From Vulcanimicrobiota bacterium (lineage in GTDB: Bacteria > Vulcanimicrobiota > Xenobia > Xenobiales > JADMJV01): a stretch of 64,000 nucleotides of DNA. The stretch lies in assembly GCA_050250895.1 (NCBI GenBank), contig JBFWNU010000001.1:2564891-2628890 (forward strand). The letters are read 5' to 3'. Positions 16,506-40,579 of the stretch are shown piece after piece (within the stretch, counting starts at the first letter, position 1; each line of letters starts with the position of its first letter). A model generated the notes under the pieces. It ran no database searches. It was not told where the DNA came from and saw nothing but the letters and a program-made list of their open reading frames with translations. The position numbers were made by a program, and so were the translations under genes.

Positions 16506-16870
16506 GGATCCTCTACCAGGGCGTCCTCGAGGATCTCCTCGTAGGCCTCCTGAACGGCTCGAACTTCCTGCTCGATGAGCCTGGCCCGGTCGACCAGAGC
16601 GCGCAGCTGGTCGGCGGGCAGTCCCTCTTCAAAGCCGATCGAGGCCGCCTCGAGCACCTCGGTCATGGCCTCGAGGGCCGAGCGCAAGGTCTGCCAGGCC
16701 TCGAGTTCGCGGGGGTCGTCGGGGCCGGGTCTGAGCTGCTCGACCCCTTCGCGCCAGATGGCCAGACTATCGTCGAGACGGCCCAGGCGTTCGGTCAGCT
16801 CGACCGGTCCCGCCTGGCCGGCCAGATAATCCTCGACCACGCGCGCTAACTGGTCGGCCGGGCCTAGCAT
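16502..16870 (-). CDS. hypothetical helical protein (122 aa)
   Basis: ATG at 16870 (MLGPADQL) overlaps the stop of the upstream regulator; only this 3' part of the listed 350-aa ORF looks coding. Confidence 0.65.
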   Translation of the reverse strand: MLGPADQLARVVEDYLAGQAGPVELTERLGRLDDSLAIWREGVEQLRPGPDDPRELEAWQTLRSALEAMTEVLEAASIGFEEGLPADQLRALVDRARLIEQEVRAVQEAYEEILEDALVEDP

Positions 16871-19199: not shown

Positions 19200-19252
19200 T
19201 TTACAACTGGCCGGAGCGACACAACAGACTCACAGCCCGAGCCTCGTAGGAT
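19200..19252 (+). promoter_or_regulatory. regulon promoter copy 1
   Basis: TTTACAA-N12-ACACAAC-agac-TCACAGC-N10-TAGGAT; the same geometry recurs at three other sites. Confidence 0.75.
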
Positions 19253-19308: not shown

Positions 19309-19626
19309 ATGGATGTTAAAGGAGTAGGTTTTGCGTTCGAGGCGAGCATGGGCATCGGTCAGGGTCAGGGACTCAAAGGGTTGGACGGTCCCAATCGCGC
19401 TCCCGAGGGTCACGGCCCCTGCAAGAGCCACCACGGTAAGGGCAATCAGAAGGGGGGCGGCGCCGACAAGATTCTCAAAGCCGTAGCCAAGTTGCTGCAG
19501 GCCGTGGCCGGAGGGGCCGGCGGCGAGGGTGGCGGCAAAGGCTGCGGTTGCAGCGGCGGGCAACTCGGTGGAGCCCCGGGACTGGCCGGTGGAGGCATCG
19601 GGCGGGCCAACCCGTTCCTGGGTTAA
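19309..19626 (+). CDS. small Gly/Lys-rich protein (105 aa)
   Basis: AAGGAG and GAGG upstream, own promoter and terminator. Confidence 0.75.
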   Translation: MDVKGVGFAFEASMGIGQGQGLKGLDGPNRAPEGHGPCKSHHGKGNQKGGGADKILKAVAKLLQAVAGGAGGEGGGKGCGCSGGQLGGAPGLAGGGIGRANPFLG

Positions 19627-19635
19627 GCACAGTTG

Positions 19636-19665
19636 GGGCGGGAGAGACTCTCTCCCGCCCTTTTT
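19636..19665 (+). terminator. intrinsic terminator
   Basis: GGGCGGGAGAG-act-CTCTCCCGCCC followed by TTTTT. Confidence 0.9.
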
Positions 19666-20521: not shown

Positions 20522-21555
20522 AAGTTGCTCAACAGCTGAGCGGTGGGCAACACCGCCGCCAGGAAGAGAAAGGCCGTCAGACTACCCAGGACCGTCATCA
20601 TCAGGGGCTCGATCAGAGCTGTGGCCGTGGCCAGAGCCAGGTCGAGCTCCATTTCGTAAAGGGCGCAGGTGGTTCGGCTCATGGCCGCCAGGGTGGCTGT
20701 CTCTTCGCCGGCTTTGAGTAGCCCGGCCGGAATGCCGCCCAGCAGTTCGCATTCGACGATGGCCTCGCCCAGCCGCTCCCCGCCTTCGACCCGTTTGCGG
20801 GTGGCCATCAGTTGGGCGGCCACCACCCGATTACCGGACGCCCGCGCGGCCAGTTCTAGCGAGCTGAGCACATCGACTCCGGCCGACAGGCAACAGCCCA
20901 GCACGTAGAAGACTCTCACGGCCACGGTCTTGCGGGTGACGATAGACAGGCCCGGGGTCGAGAGCAAAAAGCGATCCCAGACCAGGCGCACGGCCGGACT
21001 GACCAGCCACTCTTGCAGGTAGGGGCCACAGCTCAACAGGAAGACCGGAATGGCCACCAGTTGGACCAGAAACAGTGGATGGCGTAGGATTTCTCCGACC
21101 CAGACCAGCAGACGCGTGGCCAGGGGCAACTGCAGGCGCAGCGACACGAACAGCTCGTTGAGGGCCGGCATGACGAAGGTCACGAAGGTCAGGGTGGTGA
21201 GCAAGAACGAGGCTACCAGGATGGCCGGATACACCATGGCCGAGGACAGCTTGCGGGCCAGCTCGGCCTGGCGTTCTTCGAGCTGGGCCAGGCGTTCGAT
21301 CATGCCCACCAGGGTGCCCGAGCGTTCACCGATCTCGAGCAGGGCGGTATAGGTGTCGGGAAAGACCTGGGGGAGCTCGCGCATGGCCCGCGACAGAGGC
21401 TGGCCCTGGCGCACGCGCAACGCAAGCAGGTCGCTGGCCTCGGTGAGTTTGGGACTCGACTGGCCGGCCAGGCTCAGCGCGTCTAACAGCGGAACACCGG
21501 TCCGCAGCATAAACGACAGCTGGCCACTAAAGACCGCCAGACCCCTCCGATCCAT
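20518..21555 (-). CDS. type II secretion / type IV pilus platform protein (GspF/PilC family)
   Basis: GVPLLDAL, GERSGTL, AMVYP, GEETATL and LIEP duplicated T2SSF domains. Confidence 0.92.
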   Translation of the reverse strand: MDRRGLAVFSGQLSFMLRTGVPLLDALSLAGQSSPKLTEASDLLALRVRQGQPLSRAMRELPQVFPDTYTALLEIGERSGTLVGMIERLAQLEERQAELARKLSSAMVYPAILVASFLLTTLTFVTFVMPALNELFVSLRLQLPLATRLLVWVGEILRHPLFLVQLVAIPVFLLSCGPYLQEWLVSPAVRLVWDRFLLSTPGLSIVTRKTVAVRVFYVLGCCLSAGVDVLSSLELAARASGNRVVAAQLMATRKRVEGGERLGEAIVECELLGGIPAGLLKAGEETATLAAMSRTTCALYEMELDLALATATALIEPLMMTVLGSLTAFLFLAAVLPTAQLLSNF

Positions 21556-21631
21556 CTTGTATGGTTACCGATTCGAGGGGGCTCCCCCTGCCGGTCGAGG
21601 AGTAGCCGACCAGTCGCGAGAAGGAGCCGTC

Positions 21632-24043
21632 TTGCAGACCTCGACCTCGTCACGATTGTTGCCGCTGGCCCTTTTGGCCTGTGCTGGTGGGTTGCTGGGC
21701 CTGGCCAGCGCCAACCCCCAGCCGGAACCGGCCTTGCTGGCTTTGTTGGCCGTGGGATGCCTGGCTCTGGAGGCGGCCGCTGCCAGCCTCGGCAATCTCG
21801 GTTTCGTGAGCGGGGCGGGAGCCTGCTATCTGGCCGCCGCTTTGAGCCCCCAGGTGGGGTATGGCTGGGCTTTGCTGCTCAGTCTGGGCGCTCTGGGTTT
21901 GCGCACCCTGCTGCGCGGGCAGGGACAGGGTAGCTGGCGGGTGATGGAGGGGCTGGTCGATTTGGTGCCGGTGACCCTGGCCTGTCTGGTTGGTTTGGGG
22001 CTGGGTTGGCTCTGGGCCAGTCCTCCAGCCTGGGCCGTGGCCCTGATTGTGCTCGAGGTCTATCTGCCCGCTGCCCTGGGTTTGCCCGGCTTGCTGGCCG
22101 CCGGACTGCCGCTAGAAGAGCGACCTTATTGGGCTCGCTGCCGGCGGGCGGTCACCCCGTTGGTGGTGGCCTCCGCCTTTCTAGGAGTGGCCGGGGCCAA
22201 GCTTTCCGGTCTGGGGCCCTGGCAGGTGCTCTGGATTGCTCCCGTGGCCGTCGCCCTGGCCACCCAGGTGGCCCGCAGCCTCGACGAGGTCGAACTGGCC
22301 GACCGCCAGACCCTGGCCGCCGAACTCGAATCGGTTCGTCGGGGCAAGGCCCGTGAGCAGGCTCAGGGCGACCGTTTGCGGCGCGAACTGCAGTCGAAGG
22401 TCGACGAGTATCTGGTGGTCGAGGAGTTATCGCTGGAACTGGCCGGCAGCCACACTGTCGACGAGTGCCTGGCGGTAGTGCTCGAGAAGCTGGCTCACAC
22501 GGTGGACTGCCAGAGCCTGGCTATCTTCGTTCCCGAGGACGAGCAGCTCGTGCCTTTGCGCTTTCGCAGCCCTTTTCAGACCCAATTGGCCGAGGCGCGC
22601 CTGCTGCGCAGCCGCGAGCCGCTGGTGGAGCAGTGCCAGCAAAGCGGTCGCCTCGAGACGCTGGGCCTGCCTGAACCAGCCGAGCGCCTCTTTCCTGGCG
22701 AGACGGTAGCGGTGGCCTTGCCCATCGAGGGTTTCGGCGTACTCTATGCCGGTCGTCGAGGCGATCCTTTCGGCTCCGAGCAACTCCGGCTGCTGGTCAT
22801 CGCCGCCACCCAGACCTCGGTGGCCGTTCGCTCGGCCTCGCGCCTGGAGTCTCAGCAACAGGCCTTGGATCTGCTCGAGCAGGCCAATGCCCGACTGGAG
22901 GAATGGAGCGGCGGATTGGCCCGTCTCATCGAGGGCACCCGGCTGGCGGCGGTGGCGCTAGACCCGGACGCTTTGCTTGAACTGTTGCCCCAAGAAATCG
23001 CCAAGCTCGCCCCTCACCACAGTCTGGTGGTGCTCACCCGCGACCGACGAGGGGCCGAGTACGAGCATCTCAGCGAGTTGATCCAGGCCGTAGGCGAGGG
23101 GGGTCGGCCGCTGCGCTTCGACGATCTCGAAGGGGCTCGTTTCGCCCCCATCAGCCAGGGGGAACGCAGCCTGTTGGCCATCCCTTTTGACGAAAGCGGG
23201 ATGTGGTTGCTGGGCCATCGCCAGGTGGGGGCCTTCGGTCAGGATCAGCAAGACCTGCTGGTGCTGCTGTCCTACCAGGCCGGAGCGGCCCTGCAGACGG
23301 CCCGTGCCCACAAGGAAACCACCGAGGCTTATCGGCTCTTGCAAGAGTCCAAGGCCCAGCTGTTTCAGTCGTCCAAGATGGCCGCCGTGGGCCAGCTGGC
23401 GGCCGGCGTGGCGCACGAACTCAACACCCCCCTGGGTAGCACCATCCTGGCCATCGAGGCGGCCGAGATGTTCATGGAGATGAGCCCGGATTCGGCCCGC
23501 GACAAGCTCTCCATTGCCTTGCGCGAAGCGCTGCGAGCCAAGGAGATCATCCACAAGATGCTTTACTATTCTCGCGATGCTCGTTACGGAAGACGCAGCG
23601 TCGACCTGGGCAAGGTCATCGCCGACACCCTCGGGCTCAACCAGCATCAGTTTTCCCTTGACGGCATCGAACTCGCCTCCGAACTGCAAGACGTGCCCAC
23701 CATCCATTGCAACGAAAACGAGATCCAGCAGGTCTTGCTCAACTTGCTGCTCAACGCTCGCGACGCTGTGGTCGGGCGCCCCGGAGCCCGGGTGGTGCTG
23801 GCCACCCGCCAGCAGGGCGACCGGGCTATCCTCGAGGTGCGTGACAACGGTCCCGGCATTGGCGAAGAGGAGGCCGAGCGTATCTTCGAGCCGTTTTTCA
23901 CCACCAAGCCGGTGGGCCGAGGCACCGGCCTGGGCCTGTCGGTGAGTCGTCAGATTGTCGAGAGTCACCAGGGCGAGCTGGTGTTGGCCGAAACCTCGCC
24001 GACGGGCAGCACCTTTCGAGTCAGTCTGCCCCTCAACGATTAA
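21632..24043 (+). CDS. membrane-bound GAF-GAF sensor histidine kinase
   Basis: Multiple TM segments, two GAF-like regions, [35 protein letters not shown]; start set at TTG after AAGGAG. Confidence 0.92.
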
Positions 24044-24092
24044 CATCCGAGGGCCGCTCCACAACACCTTCACAACGGCTCTACTCTAGGCT
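24040..24092 (+). promoter_or_regulatory. regulon promoter copy 2
   Basis: TTAACAT-N12-CCACAAC-acct-TCACAAC-N10-TAGGCT. Confidence 0.75.
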
Positions 24093-27213: not shown

Positions 27214-27266
27214 TTAACATGGCCGGGCGGGACCACAACAGGTCCACAGCCCTGACCTCCTACAAT
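27214..27266 (+). promoter_or_regulatory. regulon promoter copy 3
   Basis: TTAACAT-N12-CCACAAC-aggt-CCACAGC-N10-TACAAT. Confidence 0.78.
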
Positions 27267-27293
27267 CGGATCAAAGCTATCCAGGAGGTCAGA

Positions 27294-28664
27294 ATGCAGA
27301 TTCCCACCAACGCCAACCACAACTCGATCCAGTTTCGCATGGTCGCTTTTAGCTTCCAGTCCAACCCTACGCCTGCCGTCGGTTCCAGCGACGGCTGGGG
27401 CAAAGGCTGGTCAGGGCGGACCGGTCGCGCCCTGGGCGGCCTCGAACTGGCTCGTCAGTTCTTGCAGGGCGGCCAGACTCGCCCCGACCTCTCGGGCCTC
27501 AGACAAGCCCTCGAGCAGCTGGGTCGCGGGCTAGCCGATTTCGCTGGCTCGTGTCACTGCTCGCACTCGGCTGCTCGGCCCAACCAGGCTCCGCCGGCCA
27601 ACGACGCGCCAACGCCGAACCAGGCGCCGAAAGCCAACCAGGCTCCCGCGGCCAACCACGCGCCAGCGCCGAACCAGGCGCCGCCGGCCAACTGCGCCCC
27701 CGCAGCCAATCAGGCTCCGGCAGCCAATCAGGCTCCCGCGGCCAACGACGCGCCCACGCCGAACCAGGCGCCGAAAGCCAACCAGGCTGCCGCGGCCAAC
27801 CACGCGCCAGCGCCGAACCAGGCGCCGAAAGCCAACCAGGCTCCCGCGGCCAACCACGCGCCAGCGCCGAACCAGGCGCCGAAAGCCGACCAGGCCCCGG
27901 CCGCCAACTACGCCCCGGTGGCCAACGAGGCGCCCAAGCCCAAGGCCGTCCCCTATCAAGAGCCCGAGCAGACGGGCAAGACCTGGGATGTCTGGTTTGA
28001 CCACCGCGACGGACAAGAGACCGACCGCCGTTCCCCCATCGTGCTTGACCTCAACGGCAACGGCAAAGCCGATATCACCGGCCAGAACGTGCTGGGCGAC
28101 GGCAAGATCACGGGACCGACCACGAAGTTCGATATCGATCCCACCCGCAACTCATATGAATACAAGAGCAACAGCGAAGCCCGCCGCAAGCTGAAAGACC
28201 GGGCCAAGGGCGAGGGCGGACGCTGGGAAGGCGACAAATACTACGGCCGCTCTGACAAGGTGCAGGGCGAGCTCAAATCGGACGGCCTCTATCACTACGG
28301 CAAAGTGGAAGAGCGCGAAGAGACCGAGTGGCTGGCCAAAAATGGCGGCGACGGCTTCTTGACCTGGGACGTCGACGGCAATGGCAAGATCGAGAGCAGC
28401 AAAGAACTCTTCGGCGAGTTCGATGTCGACGGAACCAAGAAATACTCTCACGGCTATCAGAAGCTGGCCGAGCATTTTGACGCCGACCATAACGGAGTGG
28501 TGGCCGGAGACGAACTGGCGGGCCTGACGGTATGGAAAGACGGCAATGCCGATGGTGTTACGCAAGAGGGTGAGCTTCTTGGCCTGCAAGAACTGGGCAT
28601 CACCTCGTTTGACGTGTCCAACATCAACCAGGCCGATATGAGCTCATCCTACACCTATCGCTAG
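27294..28664 (+). CDS. hexapeptide-repeat protein with a C-terminal EF-hand-like (SPIVLDLNGNG) Ca-binding domain
   Basis: AGGAGG RBS before ATG 27294; DVDGNGKIESSKELFG, DADHNGVV and DGNADGVTQEGEL loops. Confidence 0.85.
   Translation: MQIPTNANHNSIQFRMVAFSFQSNPTPAVGSSDGWGKGWSGRTGRALGGLELARQFLQGGQTRPDLSGLRQALEQLGRGLADFAGSCHCSHSAARPNQAPPANDAPTPNQAPKANQAPAANHAPAPNQAPPANCAPAANQAPAANQAPAANDAPTPNQAPKANQAAAANHAPAPNQAPKANQAPAANHAPAPNQAPKADQAPAANYAPVANEAPKPKAVPYQEPEQTGKTWDVWFDHRDGQETDRRSPIVLDLNGNGKADITGQNVLGDGKITGPTTKFDIDPTRNSYEYKSNSEARRKLKDRAKGEGGRWEGDKYYGRSDKVQGELKSDGLYHYGKVEEREETEWLAKNGGDGFLTWDVDGNGKIESSKELFGEFDVDGTKKYSHGYQKLAEHFDADHNGVVAGDELAGLTVWKDGNADGVTQEGELLGLQELGITSFDVSNINQADMSSSYTYR
27582..27941 (+). 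repeat. coding tandem repeat, 20 x 18 bp (N-[Q/D/H]-A-P-x-[A/P])
   Basis: Units such as NQAPKA, NQAPAA, NHAPAP and NDAPTP, with higher-order periodicity. Confidence 0.92.
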
Positions 28665-28685
28665 ACACAGGTGAGGGACTCAGAT

Positions 28686-28717
28686 GGACCGGGAGGACCC
28701 CGGTCCTCTTTTTTTTT
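28686..28717 (+). terminator. intrinsic terminator
   Basis: GGACCGGG-aggac-CCCGGTCC plus a T-run. Confidence 0.9.
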
Positions 28718-28733
28718 GCCGCGTCGAGAAGGC

Positions 28734-28760
28734 AAAAAAAAGGACCCCGCCATGGGGTCC
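28734..28760 (-). terminator. intrinsic terminator of the minus-strand small ORF
   Basis: GGACCCC-atggc-GGGGTCC followed by T8 on the minus strand. Confidence 0.88.
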
Positions 28761-28789
28761 AGGCACGCGCTGGGTCGACGGCGCGGCCG

Positions 28790-28924
28790 TCAGGCCGCTG
28801 TGGCCGGAGCCAGTTGGTATTGCCGAGGCTGAGAATCTTCGCGAGCCGTAACCAGATTGGTCTGGTTGGGGGTCTCGTTGGAAAAGGTCACACTGACTTG
28901 CATCAAGATGGTGGGACTGTGCAT
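28790..28924 (-). CDS. unannotated 44-aa peptide MHSPTILMQVSVTFSNETPNQTNLVTAREDSQPRQYQLAPATAA
   Basis: TAGGAGG RBS, regulon promoter upstream and its own terminator downstream. Confidence 0.7.
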   Translation of the reverse strand: MHSPTILMQVSVTFSNETPNQTNLVTAREDSQPRQYQLAPATAA

Positions 28925-28958
28925 CACGACTTCCTCCTAAGTTTTCTTGCTTGCCCTG

Positions 28959-29011
28959 ACTATAGAGGAGTGGTGCTGTCGAACTGTTGTGGGTGCCGAG
29001 ACGGTTGTAAA
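28959..29011 (-). promoter_or_regulatory. regulon promoter copy 4
   Basis: Minus strand TTTACAA-N12-CCACAAC-agtt-CGACAGC-N10-TATAGT. Confidence 0.78.
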
Positions 29012-29027
29012 CAGTGTGGGCCGTGAA

Positions 29028-29170
29028 ATGAAAGACCCGCGATTGCTCGCGGGTCTCTGAGGTCCGTATGGTCATCTATGAGAGCGGGCCAGGTCCACGC
29101 CAATTTCCCCGGCCCGCGAGACACGAGGCTGATGTGCAGGAGGGTCAGTTTCTCGTGTCCGCTGTATGTG
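29028..29170 (-). ncRNA. putative sibling sRNA copy A (about 143 nt, three hairpins, anti-SD loop)
   Basis: -10 TATTCT (29176-29181); hairpins GACACGAG/CTCGTGTC with loop CCCTCCTGCACA and GCGGGCCGGG/CCTGGCCCGC; terminator GACCCGCGA/TCGCGGGTC-TTT. Confidence 0.7.
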
Positions 29171-29252
29171 CCCTTAGAATACCGGGCCGAGGTTGGCCAC
29201 ATGTTGGAAGCGCAGACCGGGTGCGACAAAACGGTTGCCGGCAGGTAAAATC
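29028..29252. repeat. 225-bp direct repeat, copy A (partner at 30883-31107)
   Basis: Seven mismatches counted between copies, none inside the predicted RNA. Confidence 0.95.
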
Positions 29253-29277
29253 GGGAGAAGAACTGGAATTGATCAAG

Positions 29278-30238
29278 ATGGAGGACGTCCTCTTCGAAGC
29301 GGTCGCCGGTATCACGTCTCTCTTGCCGCAGGTGGACAGCGCGGTTCTTTTCGGGGACCGCCAGACTCGCCTGGTTTTGTCAGACAAGGCCGAGGCTTTC
29401 GAAGGGAAGCGCCTGGATACGCGCTGGCTAGAAAGCCTGCGTGAGCCGGTGGTGTTGGACGAGCCTGTGGTCGAGAGCGAGCCGTCGGCCTTGCTGCTGC
29501 CCCTGGTCCACCGCGACATCCCCCTGGCGGTGCTCTACCTGGGCGCCTCGACGCCCCAGGCCTTTAGCGCTGCCCATCGGGTGGTGGCCAGCCTGCTGAC
29601 ACCAACTCTGGTCTTGATTCTGAGCGAACAGTGGGCTCAATATTCCGACGCCCTGACGGGGCTCTACAGTCATAGCCTCTTCCAGCAGAAACTGTCCGAC
29701 GAGTTGGAGTGGTGTCCACACCCATCTGCGCGAGAGCTGTTTCGGCCTCTTCGAGATTGACCATTTCCGACGCCTCAATGATGCTTTCGGTCACCTGCGC
29801 GGCGATGAGATCTTGCTCGAGATGGCCCGATTACTGCGGAGCCAGACGGGCCCCAATGACCTGGTGGCTCGCTGGAAAGGCGACTGCTTCGCGGTTTGCT
29901 TTCGCGAGCAGGGTCTCGAGCGAGCCCTCGAGGTCTGCGAGAAGATTCGTGACCAGGTGGCCAGAGACTTTGGCGGGCGAAGACTGACCTTGTCGATTGG
30001 GCTAGGCTTGGGCCCACCCTTCGGGTCGAGACCGGCCCTGGTGGCTGCCGTCGAGGATGCCCTACGCCGGTCCAAGCAAGGTGGCGGAGACCGGCTTACA
30101 ATAGCTGACGGAAGAGACGGCGCGGGGCGTGGGGCCCGGTTGCCCCGTGGTCCGAAGGGCCCGACCCCGGCTTCAGAACGCAGGCGACTCGAGGATGAAG
30201 GCGAGGGAGGCGGGGCACCTAGCCCATCTCGGCGGTGA
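29278..30238 (+). pseudogene. frameshifted GAF-GGDEF protein with a degenerate active site (KGDCF)
   Basis: DALTGLY in one frame continues as FEIDHFRRLNDAFGHLRGDEILL in another; shift near 29716. Confidence 0.75.
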
Positions 30239-30842
30239 AGAGGTAGCGCTTGCCGCGCAGTTCGAGCTGGTCGCCGAGCGCAAGGGCCACCGGCGAGTCT
30301 TTTTCGACCGGGCAGTACCACACGTTCTCGCTGATCAAGCGTACGACCTTGGCCTCGGCAAACTCGCCTCGGGAAATGACTTCGTAGTGTTGGCGCTCGC
30401 TGTTCCAGGCGACTTCGACCAGAGGGCTGATGGCCCGCGGCTTGGTGCGATTGAGGTAAAAGTTGTCCTGGTCGGGGCTGGTGAGTAAGTGGCGGGCCTT
30501 GCGTTCGCCGGTGGGTAGCCGCACCTCGCGCCGGACCAGTCGCATCACCGTTTGTCCCACGGCGATAAGGCACTCGCTGGTGAGGGGAATCTCGCCGCTC
30601 ACTTCTATCTGGTTCACCCGGGTGGGGTTGGTCTCGGAGATGTGGCGCAGCTTGAAGAAGCTTCGGTCGGGCATCCAGTCGAGGTCGAAGTGGTGGCGCG
30701 AGACAGTCGGGTCTTCGAGTAGCAGCCAACCGTAAAGACGAGCCCCCGGCATGGCCCGGCCCACACACAGCAGTCCGGGCTTGAGTTCGATGCTCTGGCG
30801 CGGAGCGGGACTCTCGATGAAATCCAGGGCCCAACCGGTCAT
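30219..30842 (-). CDS. FHA-domain protein
   Basis: VGR...DPTVSRHH...SETNPTRVN FHA signature. Confidence 0.85.
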   Translation of the reverse strand: MTGWALDFIESPAPRQSIELKPGLLCVGRAMPGARLYGWLLLEDPTVSRHHFDLDWMPDRSFFKLRHISETNPTRVNQIEVSGEIPLTSECLIAVGQTVMRLVRREVRLPTGERKARHLLTSPDQDNFYLNRTKPRAISPLVEVAWNSERQHYEVISRGEFAEAKVVRLISENVWYCPVEKDSPVALALGDQLELRGKRYLFTAEMG

Positions 30843-30882
30843 GCGGCATGATTCCTGGTCTTGCGTCCCGTAGCCTTTAAAG

Positions 30883-31025
30883 ATGAAAGACCCGCGATTG
30901 CTCGCGGGTCTCTGAGGTCCGTATGGTCATCTATGAGAGCGGGCCAGGTCCACGCCAATTTCCCCGGCCCGCGAGACACGAGGCTGATGTGCAGGAGGGT
31001 CAGTTTCTCGTGTCCGCTGTATGTG
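30883..31025 (-). ncRNA. putative sibling sRNA copy B
   Basis: Body identical to copy A; promoter TTCCAAC-atgt-GGCCAAC-N10-TATTCT (-10 at 31031-31036). Confidence 0.7.
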
Positions 31026-31105
31026 CCCTCAGAATACCCCGGTGCGGTTGGCCACATGTTGGAAGCGCAGACCGGGTGCGACAAAACGGTTGCCGCCAGG
31101 TAAAA

Positions 31106-32542
31106 TCAGTCCAGCGGGAGCAACAAGAGCCGGACGGGGGCATAGCTGTTGGTGGTCAGGCGGTGCTGATAGCGAAACGGGCCGGCGCCGCGATGGAGAA
31201 CCCGGCCCTGGAACGCGTAAAGACCGTCGGCCCAGCCGCCGGTGGGAACCAGGACCACCATACTCTCCCCGCTCAGCTGGAGTTCGACCTCGGTCAGGGC
31301 GCCATAGTTTCCGACCAGGGTATCGTCACCGTTGCTCAGCCAGTTTCGGTCCAGGGTGAGCAAGCGGGGTCCGTCGGCGGGTGAATAGGTGGCTCGCAGT
31401 CGCCGGTCCGGGGCCAGAAACAGGCCTCGAGACTGACCTCCCGTGCGTTCAGCCAGGGGACCGTCTAACTGGCTGTCGTCGGGTTTGGTCAGGCACAGGC
31501 GATAGTCGAGGGGTCCACTCGAGGCCAGCTCGAGCATGAGTCGGCCGTTGCTAAGACCCATTGGAAGGCGGGTGATGAACTGGTGACCCGGGGCCAGTTC
31601 TAGCTGGTCGGGCCAGACCGGGTCCCAGGCCTGGGTCATCCCAGGTTCGCTCGCCTCGGCCCGGGGTCGGCATTCGAGGCGGATGGGAGAGTCGCTAAAG
31701 TTGGTTAGAATGGCAGCCAGCTCGAGGTGGCGGCCCGTGGTATTGAAGTGAGAAGCGTAGAGACGTCCGCGCCCGGCCGGGAGTGTTTGCTCGAAGAGGA
31801 CCAGGCGGTCAGATTCCAGGCGCCGGATGTTCTCGGGATTGTTGCTGTAAGCCAGCCATTTCGGTTGGTCCAAAGGCTCGAGCCTGGCCTCGAGCTCGGG
31901 GATGGTGCTCGAATGGAGGTGGCCCGACTGCCCCACCAGTGAAGCCACCTTCCGAGCCGATAAGGGGCCGCCGAAAGGCAGGCCGGCCAGGGCCGCCAGG
32001 CAGAGCAGGGCCAGCCATCCGGGGTGGGTCCATTTGAGGCTGGCCAGGGCCAGCAGCAGGCCTGCTGCTCCTAGCCAGAAGGGCGAGAATTCGAGCGAGG
32101 GAACGAAGAAGAGCGGATTGGCGGGCAAGGCCCAGGGGGCCGTGCGCAGCCAGCTGGGAGTGGCCATCTCCACCCCTCCCTGTAGCAGCCAACCCGTCGC
32201 GATAAGAGTCAGACTGGCCCAAACCCGCGCTCTGGCCAGCAAGGCCAGGCCGGCGAACAGCAGCGGCAGCCAGTTCGAGAGCGTGTCCTGACCAAAATAG
32301 TGCTGGGCGGCCCACAGATTCGAGACCAGTGCAGCCATCGCCGCCCCAGCCACCAAGGGCTCTAGCTCGACCAGCACCAGACTCAGACCCAGCAGGTGGG
32401 CCATCGTCAGCCGAGCGCGCAGCCAGGGGTTGTGGGCGTGGAACAACATGACGGCGGCCAGGATACAGCCGACTAACAGCAATACCCGTCTGGTTTTGGC
32501 GTCTTGGCTCAAGGCCGGCAAGAGCCAGAAGCATAGGCCCAT
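31106..32542 (-). CDS. hypothetical multi-pass membrane protein with a soluble C-terminal domain
   Basis: Several N-terminal hydrophobic segments; may be 5'-truncated at the island edge. Confidence 0.7.
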   Translation of the reverse strand: MGLCFWLLPALSQDAKTRRVLLLVGCILAAVMLFHAHNPWLRARLTMAHLLGLSLVLVELEPLVAGAAMAALVSNLWAAQHYFGQDTLSNWLPLLFAGLALLARARVWASLTLIATGWLLQGGVEMATPSWLRTAPWALPANPLFFVPSLEFSPFWLGAAGLLLALASLKWTHPGWLALLCLAALAGLPFGGPLSARKVASLVGQSGHLHSSTIPELEARLEPLDQPKWLAYSNNPENIRRLESDRLVLFEQTLPAGRGRLYASHFNTTGRHLELAAILTNFSDSPIRLECRPRAEASEPGMTQAWDPVWPDQLELAPGHQFITRLPMGLSNGRLMLELASSGPLDYRLCLTKPDDSQLDGPLAERTGGQSRGLFLAPDRRLRATYSPADGPRLLTLDRNWLSNGDDTLVGNYGALTEVELQLSGESMVVLVPTGGWADGLYAFQGRVLHRGAGPFRYQHRLTTNSYAPVRLLLLPLD

Positions 32543-32643: not shown

Positions 32644-32724
32644 CTGACTGTTAATCAGAAGGTTGCGGGTTCGAGTCCCGTCTTCTCCGCCAACTTGGAG
32701 AAGTAGCTCAATTGGTAGAGCATC
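32644..32724 (+). tRNA. circularly permuted tRNA-Asn(GUU)-like gene (3' part 32644-32692, linker ACTT, 5' part 32697-32724)
   Basis: Anticodon arm CTGA-CTGTTAA-TCAG, T-arm GCGGG-TTCGAGT-CCCGT and CTTCTCC-G-CCA precede GGAGAAG-TA-GCTC-AATTGGTA-GAGC-AT; acceptor strands are 7/7 complementary. Confidence 0.8.
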
Positions 32725-32757
32725 GTATACCACGGTCCATCAACTTGCGCGAATCAG

Positions 32758-32783
32758 AAGCCCGGCTGCTAGCCGGGCTTTTT
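32758..32783 (+). terminator. intrinsic terminator of the permuted tRNA unit
   Basis: AAGCCCGGCT-gct-AGCCGGGCTT followed by a T-run. Confidence 0.9.
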
Positions 32784-32820
32784 GGTTTTACCTCGTCTGG
32801 TTGGTGACCAGGGCCATCAC

Positions 32821-33193
32821 CCCGCCGGCGTCGGTCATGCAGAGGCTGCGCGAGCATCGGATCCGCCAGCTCGAGACGCGCTTGGCCTTCGCCGGCACCT
32901 ACGTCGACCACGGCTTCGGTTTCACCACGCGCACCGGGGCGCCGCTCCATGAGAGCAACGTTCAGAAAGCGTTTCGGCGGGTTTGCAAGCGGGCCGTGCT
33001 AGCCCCGGTGCGACTCTACACACTCCGGCATACCTGCGCCACCCTGATGCTGCTCCGCCGGGTGCCGCCGAAAATCGTTTCGGAGTGGCTCGGCCACGCC
33101 AGCATCACGATCACGCTGGATGTCTACTCCCACGTCCTGCCCAGTATGCGGCAGGAGGCGGCGGCTGAGCTGGAGGCTACCGGCCTGTTTTAG
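32821..33193 (+). pseudogene. C-terminal fragment of a tyrosine recombinase/integrase
   Basis: LRHTCATLML, LGHASITITLDVYSHV; N-terminal half and catalytic Arg-I absent. Confidence 0.85.
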
Positions 33194-33194
33194 C

Positions 33195-33257
33195 CACGTG
33201 CTGCCGACGATGCAGCGTGAAGCGGCCAACGAGCTCGAGGCAACGGGGTTGTTTTGA
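33195..33257 (+). pseudogene. second, diverged integrase C-terminus (HVLPTMQREAANELEATGLF*)
   Basis: Immediately follows the first copy (HVLPSMRQEAAAELEATGLF*), with many synonymous changes. Confidence 0.8.
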
Positions 33258-33342
33258 CGGTTGGCGTCAAAATTTCAATTTTCTCGCGATCGGGCTGTGG
33301 AAAACCGCCTTGGAACGCCCTAGATAGCGAACATTCTGACGC

Positions 33343-33371
33343 TTGCACCTTAGTTCAGTCCGTCGTATAAT
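33343..33371 (+). promoter_or_regulatory. sigma70 promoter of the small hydrophobic ORF
   Basis: TTGCAC-N17-TATAAT. Confidence 0.8.
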
Positions 33372-33440
33372 ACGCCGAGCCTATTTCCCCTCTGGGGGTC
33401 CAGGACGCAAGTCCTAGCTCCCCAGTAAGGAGAACCGCAA

Positions 33441-33536
33441 ATGTGGTTCGAAATAGACCCAAAAGTGCTAGTCTGCTTGATCGGCGCCATCGTTGCGATC
33501 GTGAAGGTGGTCTGGGCGTATAAGAAGGAAGACTGA
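33441..33536 (+). CDS. 31-aa type I toxin-like membrane peptide MWFEIDPKVLVCLIGAIVAIVKVVWAYKKED
   Basis: TAAGGAG RBS, single TM helix, charged tail, own promoter, convergent antisense promoter. Confidence 0.7.
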   Translation: MWFEIDPKVLVCLIGAIVAIVKVVWAYKKED

Positions 33537-33648
33537 GAAATCCTCAGCCTTCCACTCAACGCGGAGGCCGCAGTCTAACCTTACCGGGGGACGACTGCGG
33601 TCTCCCTCTTTGCCAGCGTGACGGTGCGTTAACTTTACCGTATACGCT
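33525..33648 (-). ncRNA. putative antisense (antitoxin) RNA
   Basis: Minus-strand TTGACA(33683-33678)-N17-TATTCT(33660-33655); hairpin CCGCAGTC/GACTGCGG; ends approximate. Confidence 0.55.
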
Positions 33649-33977
33649 TGCCTCAGAATAGACGAATGACTCATCCGTGTCAACAGTTGTAAAGCGTTTC
33701 TGCATATTTAAAAGCCCGCAAATATAGGCTTTGCGCCGATTTTTGACGAGTTTCTATTCTAAATCGTCGAAGGAATCATATTCTAAATCGCTATCCTGTT
33801 CCCCGCGCAACGCTAGCATCGCATCCCTAAAAGATCCAGTTGCTCTTGGGTCGTGGCTGCGGCTTGGGTGCGCCCGACGGTGGTGGGGGTGGCTTGTGAC
33901 CTCCTGCCTTCGCGCGGAGGTGGCGGTGGCGGCGCTGGGTCGCCCGATGGCTTGGGTGAGCTTGCGCTCGGCTGGGC

Positions 33978-34073
33978 CGGCCACGCCAGTACACGATCAC
34001 GCTGGATGTAATACTCTCACTTGCCCAGCATGCGGCAGGAGGCGGCGGCTGAGCTGGAGGCTACAGGCCTGTT
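33978..34073 (+). pseudogene. third, frameshifted integrase 3' remnant (direct repeat of about 33091-33190)
   Basis: Shares ATGCGGCAGGAGGCGGCGGCTGAGCTGGAGGCTAC exactly with copy 1. Confidence 0.85.
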
Positions 34074-34177
34074 CCGAGGCCCTACTGTGTCCTGGCTTGG
34101 TGCAAGTTAGACTTCTGTTTGCGAACGAATTTTTGCGAGGATTCTGGACTTTGTAGAGAAGCAATCTTCGACATCAT

Positions 34178-34399
34178 TTGGACACTAGGAGAATGTCGAT
34201 GCAACCCTACTATTTTGACAATATGACCTTCGGCCCACGCGGCTTCAACGCAACCACGGACCAAGACAAGTACATTCAGACGCTTTGGAAAAACGTTGCA
34301 AAGCTCATAGACATCGTACCTGCGCAAGATAAGCAGATAGAATCTTTGAAGCATGAAATCGAGACCCTACGCAAAGAAATCGAGGAGTTGAAGAGGTAG
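34178..34399 (+). CDS. small hypothetical protein with a C-terminal coiled coil
   Basis: AGGAG RBS before internal ATGs (34193/34199); IESLKHEIETLRKEIEELKR heptads. Confidence 0.6.
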   Translation: MDTRRMSMQPYYFDNMTFGPRGFNATTDQDKYIQTLWKNVAKLIDIVPAQDKQIESLKHEIETLRKEIEELKR

Positions 34400-34419
34400 C
34401 CACGGCCGAAAAACGCTTC

Positions 34420-34872
34420 TTAGAAGACCCAGTTCTGCTCTTTGATCATCTCCAAGCAAGTAATGGCCGTGACGCCGTGTTGACGGCACAGCACAGGTAT
34501 TTTTGGGCGATCCGCTGAGCCCCTTCGGCGCTCCTGGGTGACAACTTTAAAGCCCATCTCCTTAGCGTAGGCTACGACATGGGGATCGGCTTCGTTCTCG
34601 TGACCGACGACGAGCCCGGGATACTTGTTGATGATCTCTCGGACAATGTTCTCGACTTTGGCGTTGGTCGACATCACCATTTGGCTGTGCATGTCTACCC
34701 ACTTCTTAAGGTGATCGTCCTTTCGGCCCAACTCAATATGAACCGCCTTCACGATGTGGAAGCGCCCTTGATTCACAAGGTTCTGGACCTGGGTCCAGAA
34801 CTGGGGAAAATTCTGATGAGGATAGAGATCGTTTTCGGCGGTGATCAGTGCCGAAGCATCGACGCTATACAC
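34420..34872 (-). CDS. DUF4411-family PIN-like protein
   Basis: YSVDASALI...LYP...FPQFW...ADPHVVAYA...VVTQE...KIP-x-x-C; GTG start overlapping the upstream stop. Confidence 0.85.
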   Translation of the reverse strand: MYSVDASALITAENDLYPHQNFPQFWTQVQNLVNQGRFHIVKAVHIELGRKDDHLKKWVDMHSQMVMSTNAKVENIVREIINKYPGLVVGHENEADPHVVAYAKEMGFKVVTQERRRGSADRPKIPVLCRQHGVTAITCLEMIKEQNWVF

Positions 34873-36076
34873 TCCAAGCTCCCTTCTTCTCGAGCAGTTG
34901 TCGCATCTCACTGAAATGCTGGACCTTTGCCCCGAGGTACCCAGAGGCGCTCGAGAGAGTGATGGTTCTGGAGTCGAGAGCGTCGAAAACCAGTCGAGAG
35001 TAGGCGACGCCGTTGTAGGCGACTTTCCGCACGGCGTATCTCGGGCCACCTTCGCTTTCAGCAAGGTTCTGTCGGTGCTCACGGCGTTGGGCCCTATACT
35101 GGCTAACCTTGCGGCCGAATTCAGCTTGGGTCATTCGATGGTGGTCGAGCAGCCTTCTAACGATGACATCGCGACTAACGGAGAAACGATTCGCAACCGA
35201 CTTTATAACTTCGTCGGGCCAGCGATTAGCATCGTCATGGGCATTGACCTCCTCGTCCCTTTCTAGAACGCTCCAAGGCACCAGCAACTCAGCGGCAAAC
35301 GCGTTGCAATAGACCTCAATCTCTCTTTGCTCGGGGGGGAGCCTGGAGTTGTCGGTGGCTTCGGCGTGCAACCCGGACACTCTCATTAGGACGTGGCCCA
35401 ACTCGTGGGCCATCGAAAACAGACGGCCCAATGGAGGGTCTTGGGTATTCACAGCGATGGTGGGTAGAGGTGTTTCTGCAATACAGACGCCTCTAAAAAC
35501 ATCGAGGTCGATTTCAGGGATCTGAAAAACCAAGAGCCCAGCATCCTCAAGAGCCCTCGTCCATAGCGAGACCGCTTCGTATTGGCCTCTGCACTTAAGT
35601 TGGCTCTCGAGAGTTAGTCCGAGGCGGGTGCGAATTTCTCCGGTAACCCGCGGAATCTCCGCCGGACTCGAACTTATGATCTCTATGTCACCAAGAAGAA
35701 AGTCGGGTGGTTCTTCCTGCAATTCCTCGTAGAGTTCCAGTGCTGTCCGCCGTCGATTTCGGATTTCACGTAGAGCAAAACGTAACTTCGGGGGATAGTC
35801 TTGAATCACACCGGGTAACGTGCGAAAGTCCGTCACCCCAGGGTCTTCGATTGGAGGTTTTTCGAGATAAAAGAGGCCGATGGGTCGGTCGAAGACATGG
35901 GCAGCCTTGGTCAACTGATTAAAGGACGGACGAAGCTCACCAGCCTCGAACGCCCTCAGTCGTTCCGGCTTGACCCCGACCTTGGCCGAGGCCTGCTCGA
36001 TGGTATAGCCAGCCGTCTCCCTAGCCCAGGTTAAGAGGGCCGGTGTGATCAGAGCTTCCACCTTTTCTTTAGCCAC
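34865..36076 (-). CDS. XRE-HTH + ImmA/IrrE zinc metallopeptidase
   Basis: LTWARE...HTH; FSMAHELGH (HExxH); EVYCNAFAAELLVP. Confidence 0.92.
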   Translation of the reverse strand: MAKEKVEALITPALLTWARETAGYTIEQASAKVGVKPERLRAFEAGELRPSFNQLTKAAHVFDRPIGLFYLEKPPIEDPGVTDFRTLPGVIQDYPPKLRFALREIRNRRRTALELYEELQEEPPDFLLGDIEIISSSPAEIPRVTGEIRTRLGLTLESQLKCRGQYEAVSLWTRALEDAGLLVFQIPEIDLDVFRGVCIAETPLPTIAVNTQDPPLGRLFSMAHELGHVLMRVSGLHAEATDNSRLPPEQREIEVYCNAFAAELLVPWSVLERDEEVNAHDDANRWPDEVIKSVANRFSVSRDVIVRRLLDHHRMTQAEFGRKVSQYRAQRREHRQNLAESEGGPRYAVRKVAYNGVAYSRLVFDALDSRTITLSSASGYLGAKVQHFSEMRQLLEKKGAWSV

Positions 36077-36154
36077 GTAAGATCTCCACGGTACAACATG
36101 CGCTGCGGAATCGGGCTCTTCCTGTACCTCGGGAGAAGTGCCCCTATTCCATAT

Positions 36155-36175
36155 TTATCCACAAGCTTGTGAATA
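36155..36175. promoter_or_regulatory. 20-bp palindrome containing a perfect DnaA box; candidate operator
   Basis: TATCCACAAG|CTTGTGAATA (one mismatch); TTATCCACA at 36155-36163. Confidence 0.45.
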
Positions 36176-36205
36176 TCCATTGGTATTTTTCTACTAACTT
36201 CCAGC

Positions 36206-36946
36206 TTAGATCATTTCTTCATCGGGCAGGTCGACTTCGGCTACCCGAAGGAGTAAGTCGCCCAGTGAGGTGATTCTATAACCGTTCAGTTCCGGTCTGC
36301 CCTCGGAATCATAAACCGGTGTCTTCGTTTTTGGGTTGACCTTGTATTTCGGCTTGAGCAGCCCCAGTCGGGCCAAGTGTGCTCTGTAGCTATCGTCAAG
36401 CGCAACGGCATTCGCCCTCTCCTCGTCCATCGGATTTGATTTGGACGGAGGAGTGATGACCGAGCCATGGCGCCGCCTGAACTCGTGGTCCGTTGATAGC
36501 GCTGGCTGGTAGTATGACCGAAGAATGAGAAGCTCGATGTCGTTAATGTCACCGAGTATCTTCAAGAGATGCTTCGCTTGTATATGCGAGACCTGAGTGG
36601 ATGTTAGACTGCTTGCGACAACGGTCGCAATTTGGTCTATTCGACGCTTCCTAGTGGCTCTCGCCGCCTGAACGGCCCCTTCTTCGACAACATCAAGAAA
36701 CTCGGCGTCGTCCCAACAGGCGTCCTCGCTTGCCTGTTCGACTCGCTGGAGCCGAGCCTCCAATGCTTTGACGAAGCTCTCCACTCTATCTAGCCGTTGG
36801 CCTGGGATAGCGCCTATTGCCTCGGCGATGGCGCCGCCAACAAAGGGAACGAAGCTCGCCCCGGCTTTGAGCCCAGTGATGACTTTGTCGGTCCACAGCG
36901 AACCGATTTTGTCGCTGCTGATCTCTATGAGGCGGTCATCGCTCAT
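36206..36946 (-). CDS. hypothetical MGE protein (Abi-alpha-like layout)
   Basis: VPFVGGAIAE N-terminal helix; C-terminal L-x-RLGLL...ITSLG winged-helix-like end. Confidence 0.7.
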   Translation of the reverse strand: MSDDRLIEISSDKIGSLWTDKVITGLKAGASFVPFVGGAIAEAIGAIPGQRLDRVESFVKALEARLQRVEQASEDACWDDAEFLDVVEEGAVQAARATRKRRIDQIATVVASSLTSTQVSHIQAKHLLKILGDINDIELLILRSYYQPALSTDHEFRRRHGSVITPPSKSNPMDEERANAVALDDSYRAHLARLGLLKPKYKVNPKTKTPVYDSEGRPELNGYRITSLGDLLLRVAEVDLPDEEMI

Positions 36947-37118
36947 GCTACCTTACCCCCCTGACTTTGAATGGATCTCCGCGGCGGGTCCGGTAGCGGG
37001 GCTTGAGCCCCGGCGGCGGCCGCCAACCCTCAACAATGACCAGCTTGCCCTTCCAGAACGGCGAATCCCCAGGCGCGCGCAGTTGGCCGCTTGGGCTCGC
37101 CAGGGATGCAGGCGGGCA

Positions 37119-39574: not shown

Positions 39575-40579
39575 ATGGGACTGATTAGAGGACGCGGACA
39601 GCATAGACCTATCTTCGGAGGACGACGTTTCTCGCGTCAGCGACCGGTGCAACACCAGTCGAGTCAGGTTCACCGGCCCGTGCAACAGCCTCAGGCCAAT
39701 CACACTCAGGCAGCCAACAAGCCCGCGCCGGCCACCAATACGGCCCCGGCCACTCAGAGCAAGCCAGCTCCCGCCAACAACGCGGCTCCCGCCGCTCAGA
39801 CCGCTAGTCAGCCCGCCCCTAGCACCCAGACCGGCTCGGCGGCACCGGCCAATCAGACCACCGCGCCCAAGCCTGCGGATACCTCCGGCCAGGGCTGGGG
39901 ACAGAAGCTATTCAACGGCTTCTCTAACCTGGTCGGTAGCGAGAACCTGGGCGCCATCGGCGCTGCCGGCAAATCCTTCAAGTTCAATGACACCGAGCGA
40001 CATACGGCCGAGTCGGGGTTGGCCGCTCTGCGCAAGATGGCCGGCAAAGACGGCGTTCTCACTCCTGACGACCGGGGCAACATCATCGGCCAGATGAACG
40101 GAGCCCTGACTCAGGAGAAGAACCGCCAGGTTGGCGCCATCGCCAATCAGAAGATCGCTCAGGCCAAAGCCAACCGGCCGCGCTTTCTGCAGCGGCTGGC
40201 CCCCAATGCGCCGCTGGTGTCGCGCATCGGAGCCAAGAAGAAGGCCGAAGCCATGCGCGACCCGCAGCACATGGCCACCGCTCGCAACACCGCCCTGGGC
40301 CAGCTCAGCCAGGGCATGCAGCAGATGGGCATGAACACCTCGGCCGGCGTCAACATGGGTCAGGGTCTTCGCAACGCCCAGAGCCTGCCGCCCATCAGCA
40401 TGCAAGATACGAAGAACTTCGAGCAGACCATGAAGATGGTCGAAGCCAAGGCCAAGGAGATGGGCCTGCCCGAGGGCAAGTTCAAAGAGGGCTTGTCGGT
40501 GAAGTTCCTCGAGGAAGTGCTAAAGGGAACCCCCGCCATCGGTCTGCGCCAGCATCAGCTCCACCCCTTTGGGCAGTGA
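39575..40579 (+). CDS. hypothetical protein with a Pro/Ala/Thr/Gln-rich N-terminal region
   Basis: GGAG RBS, GC3-rich codons, AT-rich upstream region. Confidence 0.8.
   Translation: MGLIRGRGQHRPIFGGRRFSRQRPVQHQSSQVHRPVQQPQANHTQAANKPAPATNTAPATQSKPAPANNAAPAAQTASQPAPSTQTGSAAPANQTTAPKPADTSGQGWGQKLFNGFSNLVGSENLGAIGAAGKSFKFNDTERHTAESGLAALRKMAGKDGVLTPDDRGNIIGQMNGALTQEKNRQVGAIANQKIAQAKANRPRFLQRLAPNAPLVSRIGAKKKAEAMRDPQHMATARNTALGQLSQGMQQMGMNTSAGVNMGQGLRNAQSLPPISMQDTKNFEQTMKMVEAKAKEMGLPEGKFKEGLSVKFLEEVLKGTPAIGLRQHQLHPFGQ

Follow-up and report, generated by a model that had tools for sequence, protein, structure and literature searches.

Twin intergenic modules in a Vulcanimicrobiota genome: a credible but unproven pair of sibling small RNA genes with an exposed anti-Shine-Dalgarno loop

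A stretch of 64,000 nucleotides (nt) of a Vulcanimicrobiota bacterium (assembly GCA_050250895.1, contig JBFWNU010000001.1, positions 2,564,891 to 2,628,890; referred to below as the window and numbered from its first letter) contains a direct repeat of 225 nt. As the best explanation of the sequence, both copies would be genes complete in themselves, each encoding on the minus strand a non-coding RNA of about 140 nt; we give this explanation about an even chance of being right. The twin modules are thus described here as a credible but unproven pair of sibling small RNA (sRNA) genes, of the known kind with a C-rich loop. What appears to be new is that the predicted sRNA genes share a promoter-like core with four neighbouring protein genes. 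The reading is strengthened by this shared core and by the boundaries of the repeat, which match the unit from promoter to terminator.

The repeated unit and its predicted RNA

A repeat search over the window places the two copies at 29028-29252 (copy A) and 30883-31107 (copy B), 97% identical and spaced by 1855 nt. In both copies the similarity breaks off sharply at each end, the flanks are unrelated, and the limits coincide with the promoter-to-terminator unit. The copies differ at seven positions, in copy A coordinates 29175, 29184, 29185, 29187, 29188, 29190 and 29241. All seven are at or beyond 29175, upstream of the predicted RNA, and the 147 nt from 29028 to 29174 show no difference at all. 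Five of the seven are found in the 11-nt spacer (29192-29182) between the second promoter box and the -10 box, and none touches the boxes CAACA, GCCAA and TATTCT. The confinement of the differences to the upstream 78 nt, with none in the 147-nt RNA part, has a hypergeometric p of 0.0005 if the changes are independent, and of 0.04 if the five clustered changes are counted as one event. This pattern agrees with constraint on promoter and RNA and freedom in the spacer, with the statistics being thin for two copies only.

No third copy was found in the window, neither by blastn with word size 7 nor by a covariance model run without filters. The model scores copies A and B at 194.9 bits each, and its next-best matches in the window are the terminator hairpins read on the opposite strand, at 16.2 and 15.1 bits. 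The predicted RNA and its parts, given for copy A unless stated, are as follows.

29028-29169, minus strand: predicted RNA of copy A, about 140 nt, delimited by the fold and by the identity of the copies up to 29174, with the transcription start placed 7 nt past the -10 box by prediction
30883-31024, minus strand: predicted RNA of copy B, identical to that of copy A (194.9 bits, as copy A)
29119-29160, minus strand: hairpin 1, whose apical stem CUGA/UCAG closes the 12-nt loop CCCUCCUGCACA (29144-29133); -15.1 kcal/mol alone
29084-29117, minus strand: hairpin 2, 10-bp GC stem with a 14-nt loop; -22.9 kcal/mol
29059-29083, minus strand: linker of about 25 nt, mostly single-stranded; unpaired probabilities mostly 0.25-1.0
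29028-29058, minus strand: terminator-like 12-bp GC-rich hairpin with an interrupted U-rich tail, within which the repeat terminates; -21.5 kcal/mol

The minus strand folds with a minimum free energy of -67.3 kcal/mol, compared with a shuffle mean of -49.9 (z = -4.2), and none of the 200 shuffles was as stable. Hairpin 1 consists of a 9-bp lower stem and the 4-bp apical stem, and its loop CCCUCCUGCACA, which holds an anti-Shine-Dalgarno (anti-SD) core, has nucleotides that are unpaired with a predicted probability of 0.77-1.00. This is the sole C-rich site of the RNA: the loop of hairpin 2 is not C-rich, the terminator loop is GCAA, and the linker contains no such site. An earlier reading of this DNA, made from its letters alone and called the sequence-only reading below, had proposed the 225-bp repeat with its spacing, the placement of all seven differences outside the RNA and of five in the promoter spacer, the succession of hairpin 1, hairpin 2, open stretch and terminator, and the exposed loop. 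All of these were reproduced here, with the spacer measured as 11 nt.

A riboswitch or transcription attenuator was considered and rejected. When an antiterminator-like fold is forced, the RNA reaches -39.5 compared with -61.7 kcal/mol, i.e. 22 kcal/mol worse, and Rfam gives no aptamer. In the folds modelled here, no riboswitch-type switch is seen in the minus-strand RNA.

The search of the whole window against Rfam 15 at the gathering score gave no match, in line with the suggestion of the sequence-only reading that the family may be undescribed. At E<=10, three noise matches turned up in the region 28600-31500; the families are eukaryotic or archaeal, and the minus strand that carries the RNA has no match. 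These negatives are limited in that it was not checked which sRNA families of the cuckoo or LhrC kind Rfam holds. The plasmid and phage collections gave no match to the element. An attC site, a retron and an omega-RNA were dropped by eye on their usual features, with no dedicated search; no R'/R'' core sites were seen, and neither a reverse transcriptase nor TnpB was seen among the 45 ORFs (open reading frames) scanned in the window. No description of this RNA was found in the literature searched, where, in the portions of text available, Eremiobacterota and sRNA occur together only in a review of phototrophs.

A promoter-like core shared with neighbouring genes

The region upstream of both sRNA copies, and of a 45-amino-acid (aa) ORF downstream of copy A, reads CAACA-N20-TANNNT. 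Seven such sites are present in the window while 0.19 are expected, and none of 100 shuffles attains seven. Relaxing the gap to 19-21 nt adds no further sites of this type. Two of the seven are the sRNA copies and four are promoters of protein genes. The last one, at 58374-58344, is located within an ORF, has no second box and was treated as a probable chance match. At the four protein-gene sites the core is part of a longer 53-nt motif, TTWACAW, N13, CACAACA, N4, SACAR, N11, TANNNT, which has four exact matches in the window; allowing up to two mismatches adds one more, against 0.23 expected.

19200-19252, plus strand: 53-nt motif before a Gly-rich 105-aa ORF (start 19309)
24040-24092, plus strand: 53-nt motif before a transglutaminase-like gene (start 24110)
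27214-27266, plus strand: 53-nt motif before the gene starting at 27294 (TTAACAT, N13, CACAACA, N4, CACAG, N11, TACAAT)
29011-28959, minus strand: 53-nt motif before the 45-aa ORF (start 28927), 3' of the copy A hairpin
29176-29206, minus strand: promoter-like core of copy A, with CAACA at 29206-29202, GCCAA at 29197-29193, the spacer at 29192-29182 and TATTCT at 29181-29176
31031-31061, minus strand: promoter-like core of copy B, with the same boxes and a different spacer

At the four protein-gene sites, the end of the -10-like hexamer is followed by a good start site after 17-56 nt. The two boxes are direct repeats 11 nt apart, which is clearest at 24062 (CACAAC twice) and in the sRNA promoters (CCAAC twice). 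The second CAAC-type box is 9-10 nt from the -10, and the distance from CAACA to TANNNT is 20 nt. The 11-nt spacer in which copies A and B differ most is likewise unconserved in the four other promoters, save for CTC right before the -10. In addition to the core, the sRNA promoters have AGGGCA after the -10, as in the protein-gene sites.

The sRNA sites were left out when position weight matrices (PWM) were trained on the four protein-gene sites alone, in three models (core and start, full, and core only). With the core-and-start model, copy A ranks 5th and copy B 6th of 127,920 positions and they are the best non-training positions; with the full model they rank 6th and 7th of 127,876. The sigma-54 and standard sigma-70 readings of the sRNA promoter were rejected by eye, and for sigma-70 a promoter scan agrees. 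On the plus strand, a sigma-70-like match (GCGACA-17-TAAAAT) is present at the right end of both copies, at 29223-29251, where it faces a GAF-GGDEF gene, and at 31078-31106, where it is antisense to the 3' end of a 478-aa ORF.

The promoter at 19222 adjoins, in divergent orientation, a gene (16864-19149) that encodes receiver, Trans_reg_C, BTAD and TPR domains, and this receiver-BTAD protein may be what drives the shared motif. A GAF histidine kinase gene (21353-24043) also lies beside promoter motifs. The ideas of a promoter and of a common regulon, put forward in the sequence-only reading, receive real support: the motif core is over-represented and common to the 27294 gene and three others, but at the sRNA copies it comes with neither the TTWACAW box nor a sigma-70 match.

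Proposed mechanism, candidate target and alternatives

We suggest that transcription of the twin RNAs would proceed from an activator-type promoter, in which two direct CAAC-type boxes 11 nt apart replace the -35 box and a TANNNT -10 is placed 20 nt past the first box. The same core would serve a local set consisting of the 105-aa ORF, the transglutaminase-like gene, the EF-hand gene at 27294 and the 45-aa ORF. The transcript would end at the strong hairpin with its U-rich tail. The RNA would then most likely act in trans, its exposed anti-SD loop pairing with ribosome-binding sites and blocking the initiation of translation. The best candidate target within the window would be the mRNA of the 27294 gene, and one activator driving both the RNA and its target would create an incoherent feed-forward loop.

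The proposed target site CAGGAGGUCAG (27282-27292, plus strand) spans the Shine-Dalgarno sequence (SD) of the 27294 gene. The sequence CAGGAGGTCAG occurs once in the window, at 27282-27292, immediately ahead of the ATG at 27294, and pairs with CUGACCCUCCUG of the RNA, one C being bulged out; the bare 12/11-mer has -16.2 kcal/mol. The complementarity described in the sequence-only reading therefore exists, including its bulge. With -18.0 kcal/mol, the duplex between the 16-nt apex and the 27294 start region is stronger than those at the three other regulon start regions, and 0.1% of fully shuffled seeds attain this value. Four of the paired sRNA bases lie within the apical stem, the opening of which costs 3.8 kcal/mol. 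If transcription starts about 7 nt past TACAAT (at about 27273, predicted), the leader is 21 nt long and the net energy is about -7.3 kcal/mol.

Several results weigh against this reading, and some of them concern the target. When the CCUCCU core is kept in 2000 shuffles, 5.5% attain the value on one of the four start regions; for 27294 itself the share is 3.1%. Most of the pairing signal is then an anti-SD meeting a strong SD, and the 27294 match exceeds only slightly what is expected of anti-SD loops in general (p ~0.03-0.055). The site ranks 10th among 2025 candidate starts; ranks 1 and 2 are the antisense of the sRNA itself, ranks 3-9 may or may not be real starts, and the start of the ORF at 36946 has a duplex score of -19.6. 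In a duplex scan of the whole window the 27294 site is outside the top 40. Further, on transcripts that begin upstream of 27252 the SD is locked in a cis hairpin, and the roughly 14 kcal/mol needed to open the site leaves a net gain near zero. This 10-bp perfect hairpin at 27252-27292 (plus strand) is formed by CUGACCUCCU and the SD AGGAGGUCAG of the 27294 gene and has -19.4 kcal/mol (z = -4.8 for the 96-nt fold). Because its 5' arm falls on the spacer and -10 of the 27294 promoter itself, the hairpin would form only on RNA that reads through from the upstream operon. The arm resembles the sRNA apex in sequence because both complement one SD, and the resemblance is not independent evidence. 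In the energies modelled here the 27294 mRNA is a plausible but weak candidate, and on balance we hold it unlikely to be the target.

The other adverse results concern the promoter, the terminator and the conservation of the RNA. The sigma-70 scan found no minus-strand promoter at either copy, and the upstream TTWACAW box of the protein-gene sites is missing from both. Copies A and B score 13.9 and 11.4 bits in the PWM comparison, far short of the 41.5-49.1 bits of the four training sites, although training has inflated the latter. In the PWM with the core only, copy A ranks 9th of 127,934 positions and copy B is outside the top 12. The 3' hairpin went unflagged in a terminator scan owing to its interrupted U-tract; runs of 5-9 consecutive T mark the other terminators in the window. 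The GTDB species representatives (596 Gb) were scanned for the exact 18-nt apex of hairpin 1, which gave 17 single loci, as many as chance alone would yield from a collection of that size. These loci show 18-33 nt of blastn similarity and at most 15.5 bits over 30 nt with the covariance model, none folds as the hairpin, and several read as being within coding sequence. The blank scan says little on conservation, because exact identity was demanded and even the RpoD that comes nearest among the proteins searched is 87% identical (the next about 75%). The RpoD matches with a name are from Vulcanimicrobiota (75%) and Eremiobacteraeota (63%), besides a few metagenome-assembled genomes with other labels; the host is probably a thinly sampled member of this phylum. 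Lastly, the copy B repeat overlaps by 2 nt the stop codon (31106-31108) of the co-directional 478-aa gene, and the identity of the two RNA parts is also what a recent duplication would give.

The alternative that survives best is that the repeat is the product of a recent recombination or duplication, or a genome-wide intergenic repeat without RNA function, with the structure and the anti-SD loop being incidental. We consider this unlikely. Two copies are known and they flank a 1.6-kb segment with a frameshifted, degenerate GGDEF gene and an FHA gene, an integrase fragment and a low-GC island are 1.5-6 kb off, identical RNA parts are expected from a young duplication, and the p value weakens to 0.04 once the clustered changes are taken as one event. 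On the other hand, the boundaries match the promoter-to-terminator unit and are not arbitrary points, the differences spare the three motif boxes and the entire RNA, the fold is far more stable than its shuffles, and four genes share the promoter core. The ends also lack the marks of transposition: no terminal inverted repeat was found (score 5.0 against a null mean of 6.4-6.5) and no target-site duplication, the longest word common to the flanks being 3 nt. With these marks missing and two copies only within the window, the element bears little resemblance to a miniature inverted-repeat transposable element (MITE), which the sequence-only reading had listed among the findings that would refute it.

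In a somewhat less probable alternative, which we regard as doubtful, each copy is a cis element and not a free sRNA. Copy B would supply the 478-aa gene with a structured 3' untranslated region (3'UTR) and terminator, or act on the FHA gene as a leader or attenuator; the 45-aa ORF would have copy A as its leader or insulator. Indeed, each copy is located upstream of a gene on the same strand, with about 100 nt from hairpin to start for copy A (28927) and about 40 nt for copy B (30842). Copy B begins at the stop codon of the 478-aa ORF and could be a 3'UTR or a leader near the FHA gene, its predicted RNA starting 82 nt past that stop codon and ending about 40 nt ahead of the FHA start. The weak U-tract would also make read-through plausible. 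However, the two downstream genes are unrelated, no competing antiterminator fold is found at the energies given above, and Rfam has no riboswitch or leader family for the element. Moreover, the similarity halts in the U-tail, short of the downstream start sites. Copy A is not merely the leader of the 45-aa ORF, because that ORF has the full promoter motif between the sRNA hairpin and its start codon.

It is very unlikely that the RNA binds a protein instead of pairing through its anti-SD loop, for example as a CsrA-type decoy. The hairpin 2 loop and the linker each have an unpaired stretch with GGA, about 30 nt from each other, and these two presumably resemble CsrA sites. Yet such sites number two only, the 45 scanned ORFs showed no gene for CsrA, Hfq or ProQ, and the C-rich loop is the most exposed and most distinctive feature of the RNA. 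That the repeat encodes a small protein or an N-terminal extension is hardly credible: open frames do traverse it on both strands (minus ORFs of 81 and 89 aa, and a plus ORF in frame with the GAF-GGDEF gene), three of the seven differences are synonymous in the plus frame (by eye) and a plus-strand AGGAGG is 11 nt before a GTG, but the 67 aa of the minus frame have no match at E<=0.001 among 1,835,955,588 representative proteins, residues 1-70 of the plus frame have none in a word-indexed collection (three candidates with common words, none scored), a Pfam search of the repeat ORFs gave no match, both ORFs run on into unrelated sequence beyond the repeat, and the copy B plus ORF is antisense to a gene with a higher GC content at third codon positions (GC3). 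The 225-nt unit accordingly reads as non-coding, as had been claimed.

Going one step beyond the preferred reading of two sRNA genes, it can be speculated that the twin RNAs are the first Eremiobacterota/Vulcanimicrobiota sRNA family and the trans arm of a two-lock control. A SARP-like response regulator would switch on a regulon of surface or secreted proteins together with the sRNAs; the sRNAs would cap the EF-hand mRNA made from its own promoter, and the same SD would be locked in cis by the near-identical anti-SD on read-through RNA from the pseudopilin operon. As a whole we find this scenario improbable.

Neighbouring genes and comparison with known systems

The C-terminal domain of the 27294-28664 product (plus strand) has 45 relatives, many with EF-hand Pfam domains, and the best is 61% identical. 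Nine relatives have an organism name: one is an Eremiobacterota metagenome-assembled genome (61% identity) and the other eight are labelled Nitrosotenuis, Myxococcota, Bradyrhizobium, Stutzerimonas or plain 'bacterium'. DxDxDG-like motifs are seen by eye in this domain, and its relatives also carry the newer Pfam family PF26745. Both this protein and the one encoded at 39575-40579 (plus strand) contain long repeat regions rich in Pro, Ala, Asn and Gln. The 45-aa ORF (28790-28927, minus strand) has a strong AGGAGG SD, the full promoter motif and its own terminator (28760-28742), and matches no Pfam or NCBIfam family. The Gly-rich 105-aa ORF (19309-19626, plus strand), behind the promoter at 19222, matches no NCBIfam family, and 3' of it an 11-12-bp GC hairpin is followed by a T run (~19637-19665). 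The transglutaminase-like gene at 24110 heads a cluster of pseudopilin and DUF7305 genes.

The GAF-GGDEF gene between the repeats (29278-30238, plus strand), with the signature KGDCF, is split over two frames near 29700-29760 and is either a degenerate pseudogene or a sequencing error. For the 478-aa ORF, the ESM Atlas gave weak leads (scores <=0.79, TM ~0.5) to Bacillota stalk or copper-amine-oxidase-N-like proteins. At 32663-33193 a truncated tyrosine-recombinase (Phage_integrase) ORF is found, followed by a low-GC stretch (51-56% compared with ~63%) in which a gene with HTH and Peptidase_M78 (IrrE-like) domains is located at 34865-36076. The region 32663-37000, 1.5 kb from copy B, is probably a mobile-element remnant.

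Should the RNA be made, it would open a first way into the post-transcriptional control of a phylum known mainly from metagenomes. It would also offer a testable circuit, whose shared activator-type promoter and whose candidates for regulator and target all lie within 12 kb. The blocking of an SD by the C-rich loop of multicopy sRNAs is a well-known principle, and the gain is in breadth and not in mechanism: if true, the twin RNA is a new sRNA of the known C-rich-loop type in an unexplored phylum.

A close parallel in principle is LhrC1-5 of Listeria monocytogenes. According to the available text of the source, these sRNAs exist as near-identical copies whose expression depends on a two-component system, and a C-rich motif lets them pair with the mRNA of a surface protein at its G-rich SD region (PMC4132741). 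The same portion of that source describes three CUCCC/UCCC sites, in loop A, the linker and the terminator loop, and a final duplex in which the 5' side of stem A opens along with loop A (PMC4132741). The twin RNA is similarly multicopy, here with two copies and identical RNA parts, and in the pairing geometry predicted here the CUGA of the apical stem likewise pairs along with the loop (compared with PMC4132741 as far as its available text goes). In contrast, it has one C-rich site, in loop 1, instead of the three described in the accessible part of PMC4132741, and no Rfam match. The host also differs, being a high-GC member of Eremiobacterota/Vulcanimicrobiota, in which both the RNA and its binding are predictions from DNA.

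In the alphaproteobacterial cuckoo/CcsR RNAs (RSs0680), as the accessible part of the source presents them, 2-4 adjacent hairpins each carry CCUCCUCCC in the loop, the genes are multicopy, and pairing with ribosome-binding sites has been proposed (PMC4615179). Multiple copies, adjacent hairpins and an anti-SD-like loop motif are found here too. However, measured against that part of PMC4615179, hairpin 1 alone has the related CCCUCCUG, the loops of hairpin 2 and of the terminator not being C-rich. The phylum is another one and there is no covariance-model match. Having one C-rich loop only and no model match, the twin RNA is a member of neither family, and the kinship with LhrC and CcsR/cuckoo that the sequence-only reading had proposed reduces to a likeness in principle.

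The sRNAs RNAIII, RsaE, SprD and FsrA are mostly single-copy genes. In these sRNAs of Staphylococcus and Bacillus, which are of the UCCC-loop kind, the SD is blocked by a C-rich motif that is left unpaired, as stated in the available portions of two papers (PMC4132741, PMC4615179). The principle is the same as that proposed for the twin RNA, with no homology in sequence or structure.

For the promoter alone, the nearest comparison is with SARP/AfsR promoters. In these, as the accessible portion of the source describes them, direct repeats overlap a poor -35 box about 8 nt upstream of a good -10, with 20 bp between -35 and -10 (PMC11301090). The regulator here differs in having a receiver domain and in its non-Streptomyces host, its binding is a prediction, and the sRNA promoters are without the TTWACAW box found in the four protein-gene promoters. 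Still, the spacing resembles that described in the available part of PMC11301090, with boxes 11 nt apart, the second of them 9-10 nt from the -10, and CAACA 20 nt from TANNNT; and the BTAD-domain regulator gene at 16864-19149 adjoins one of the promoters.

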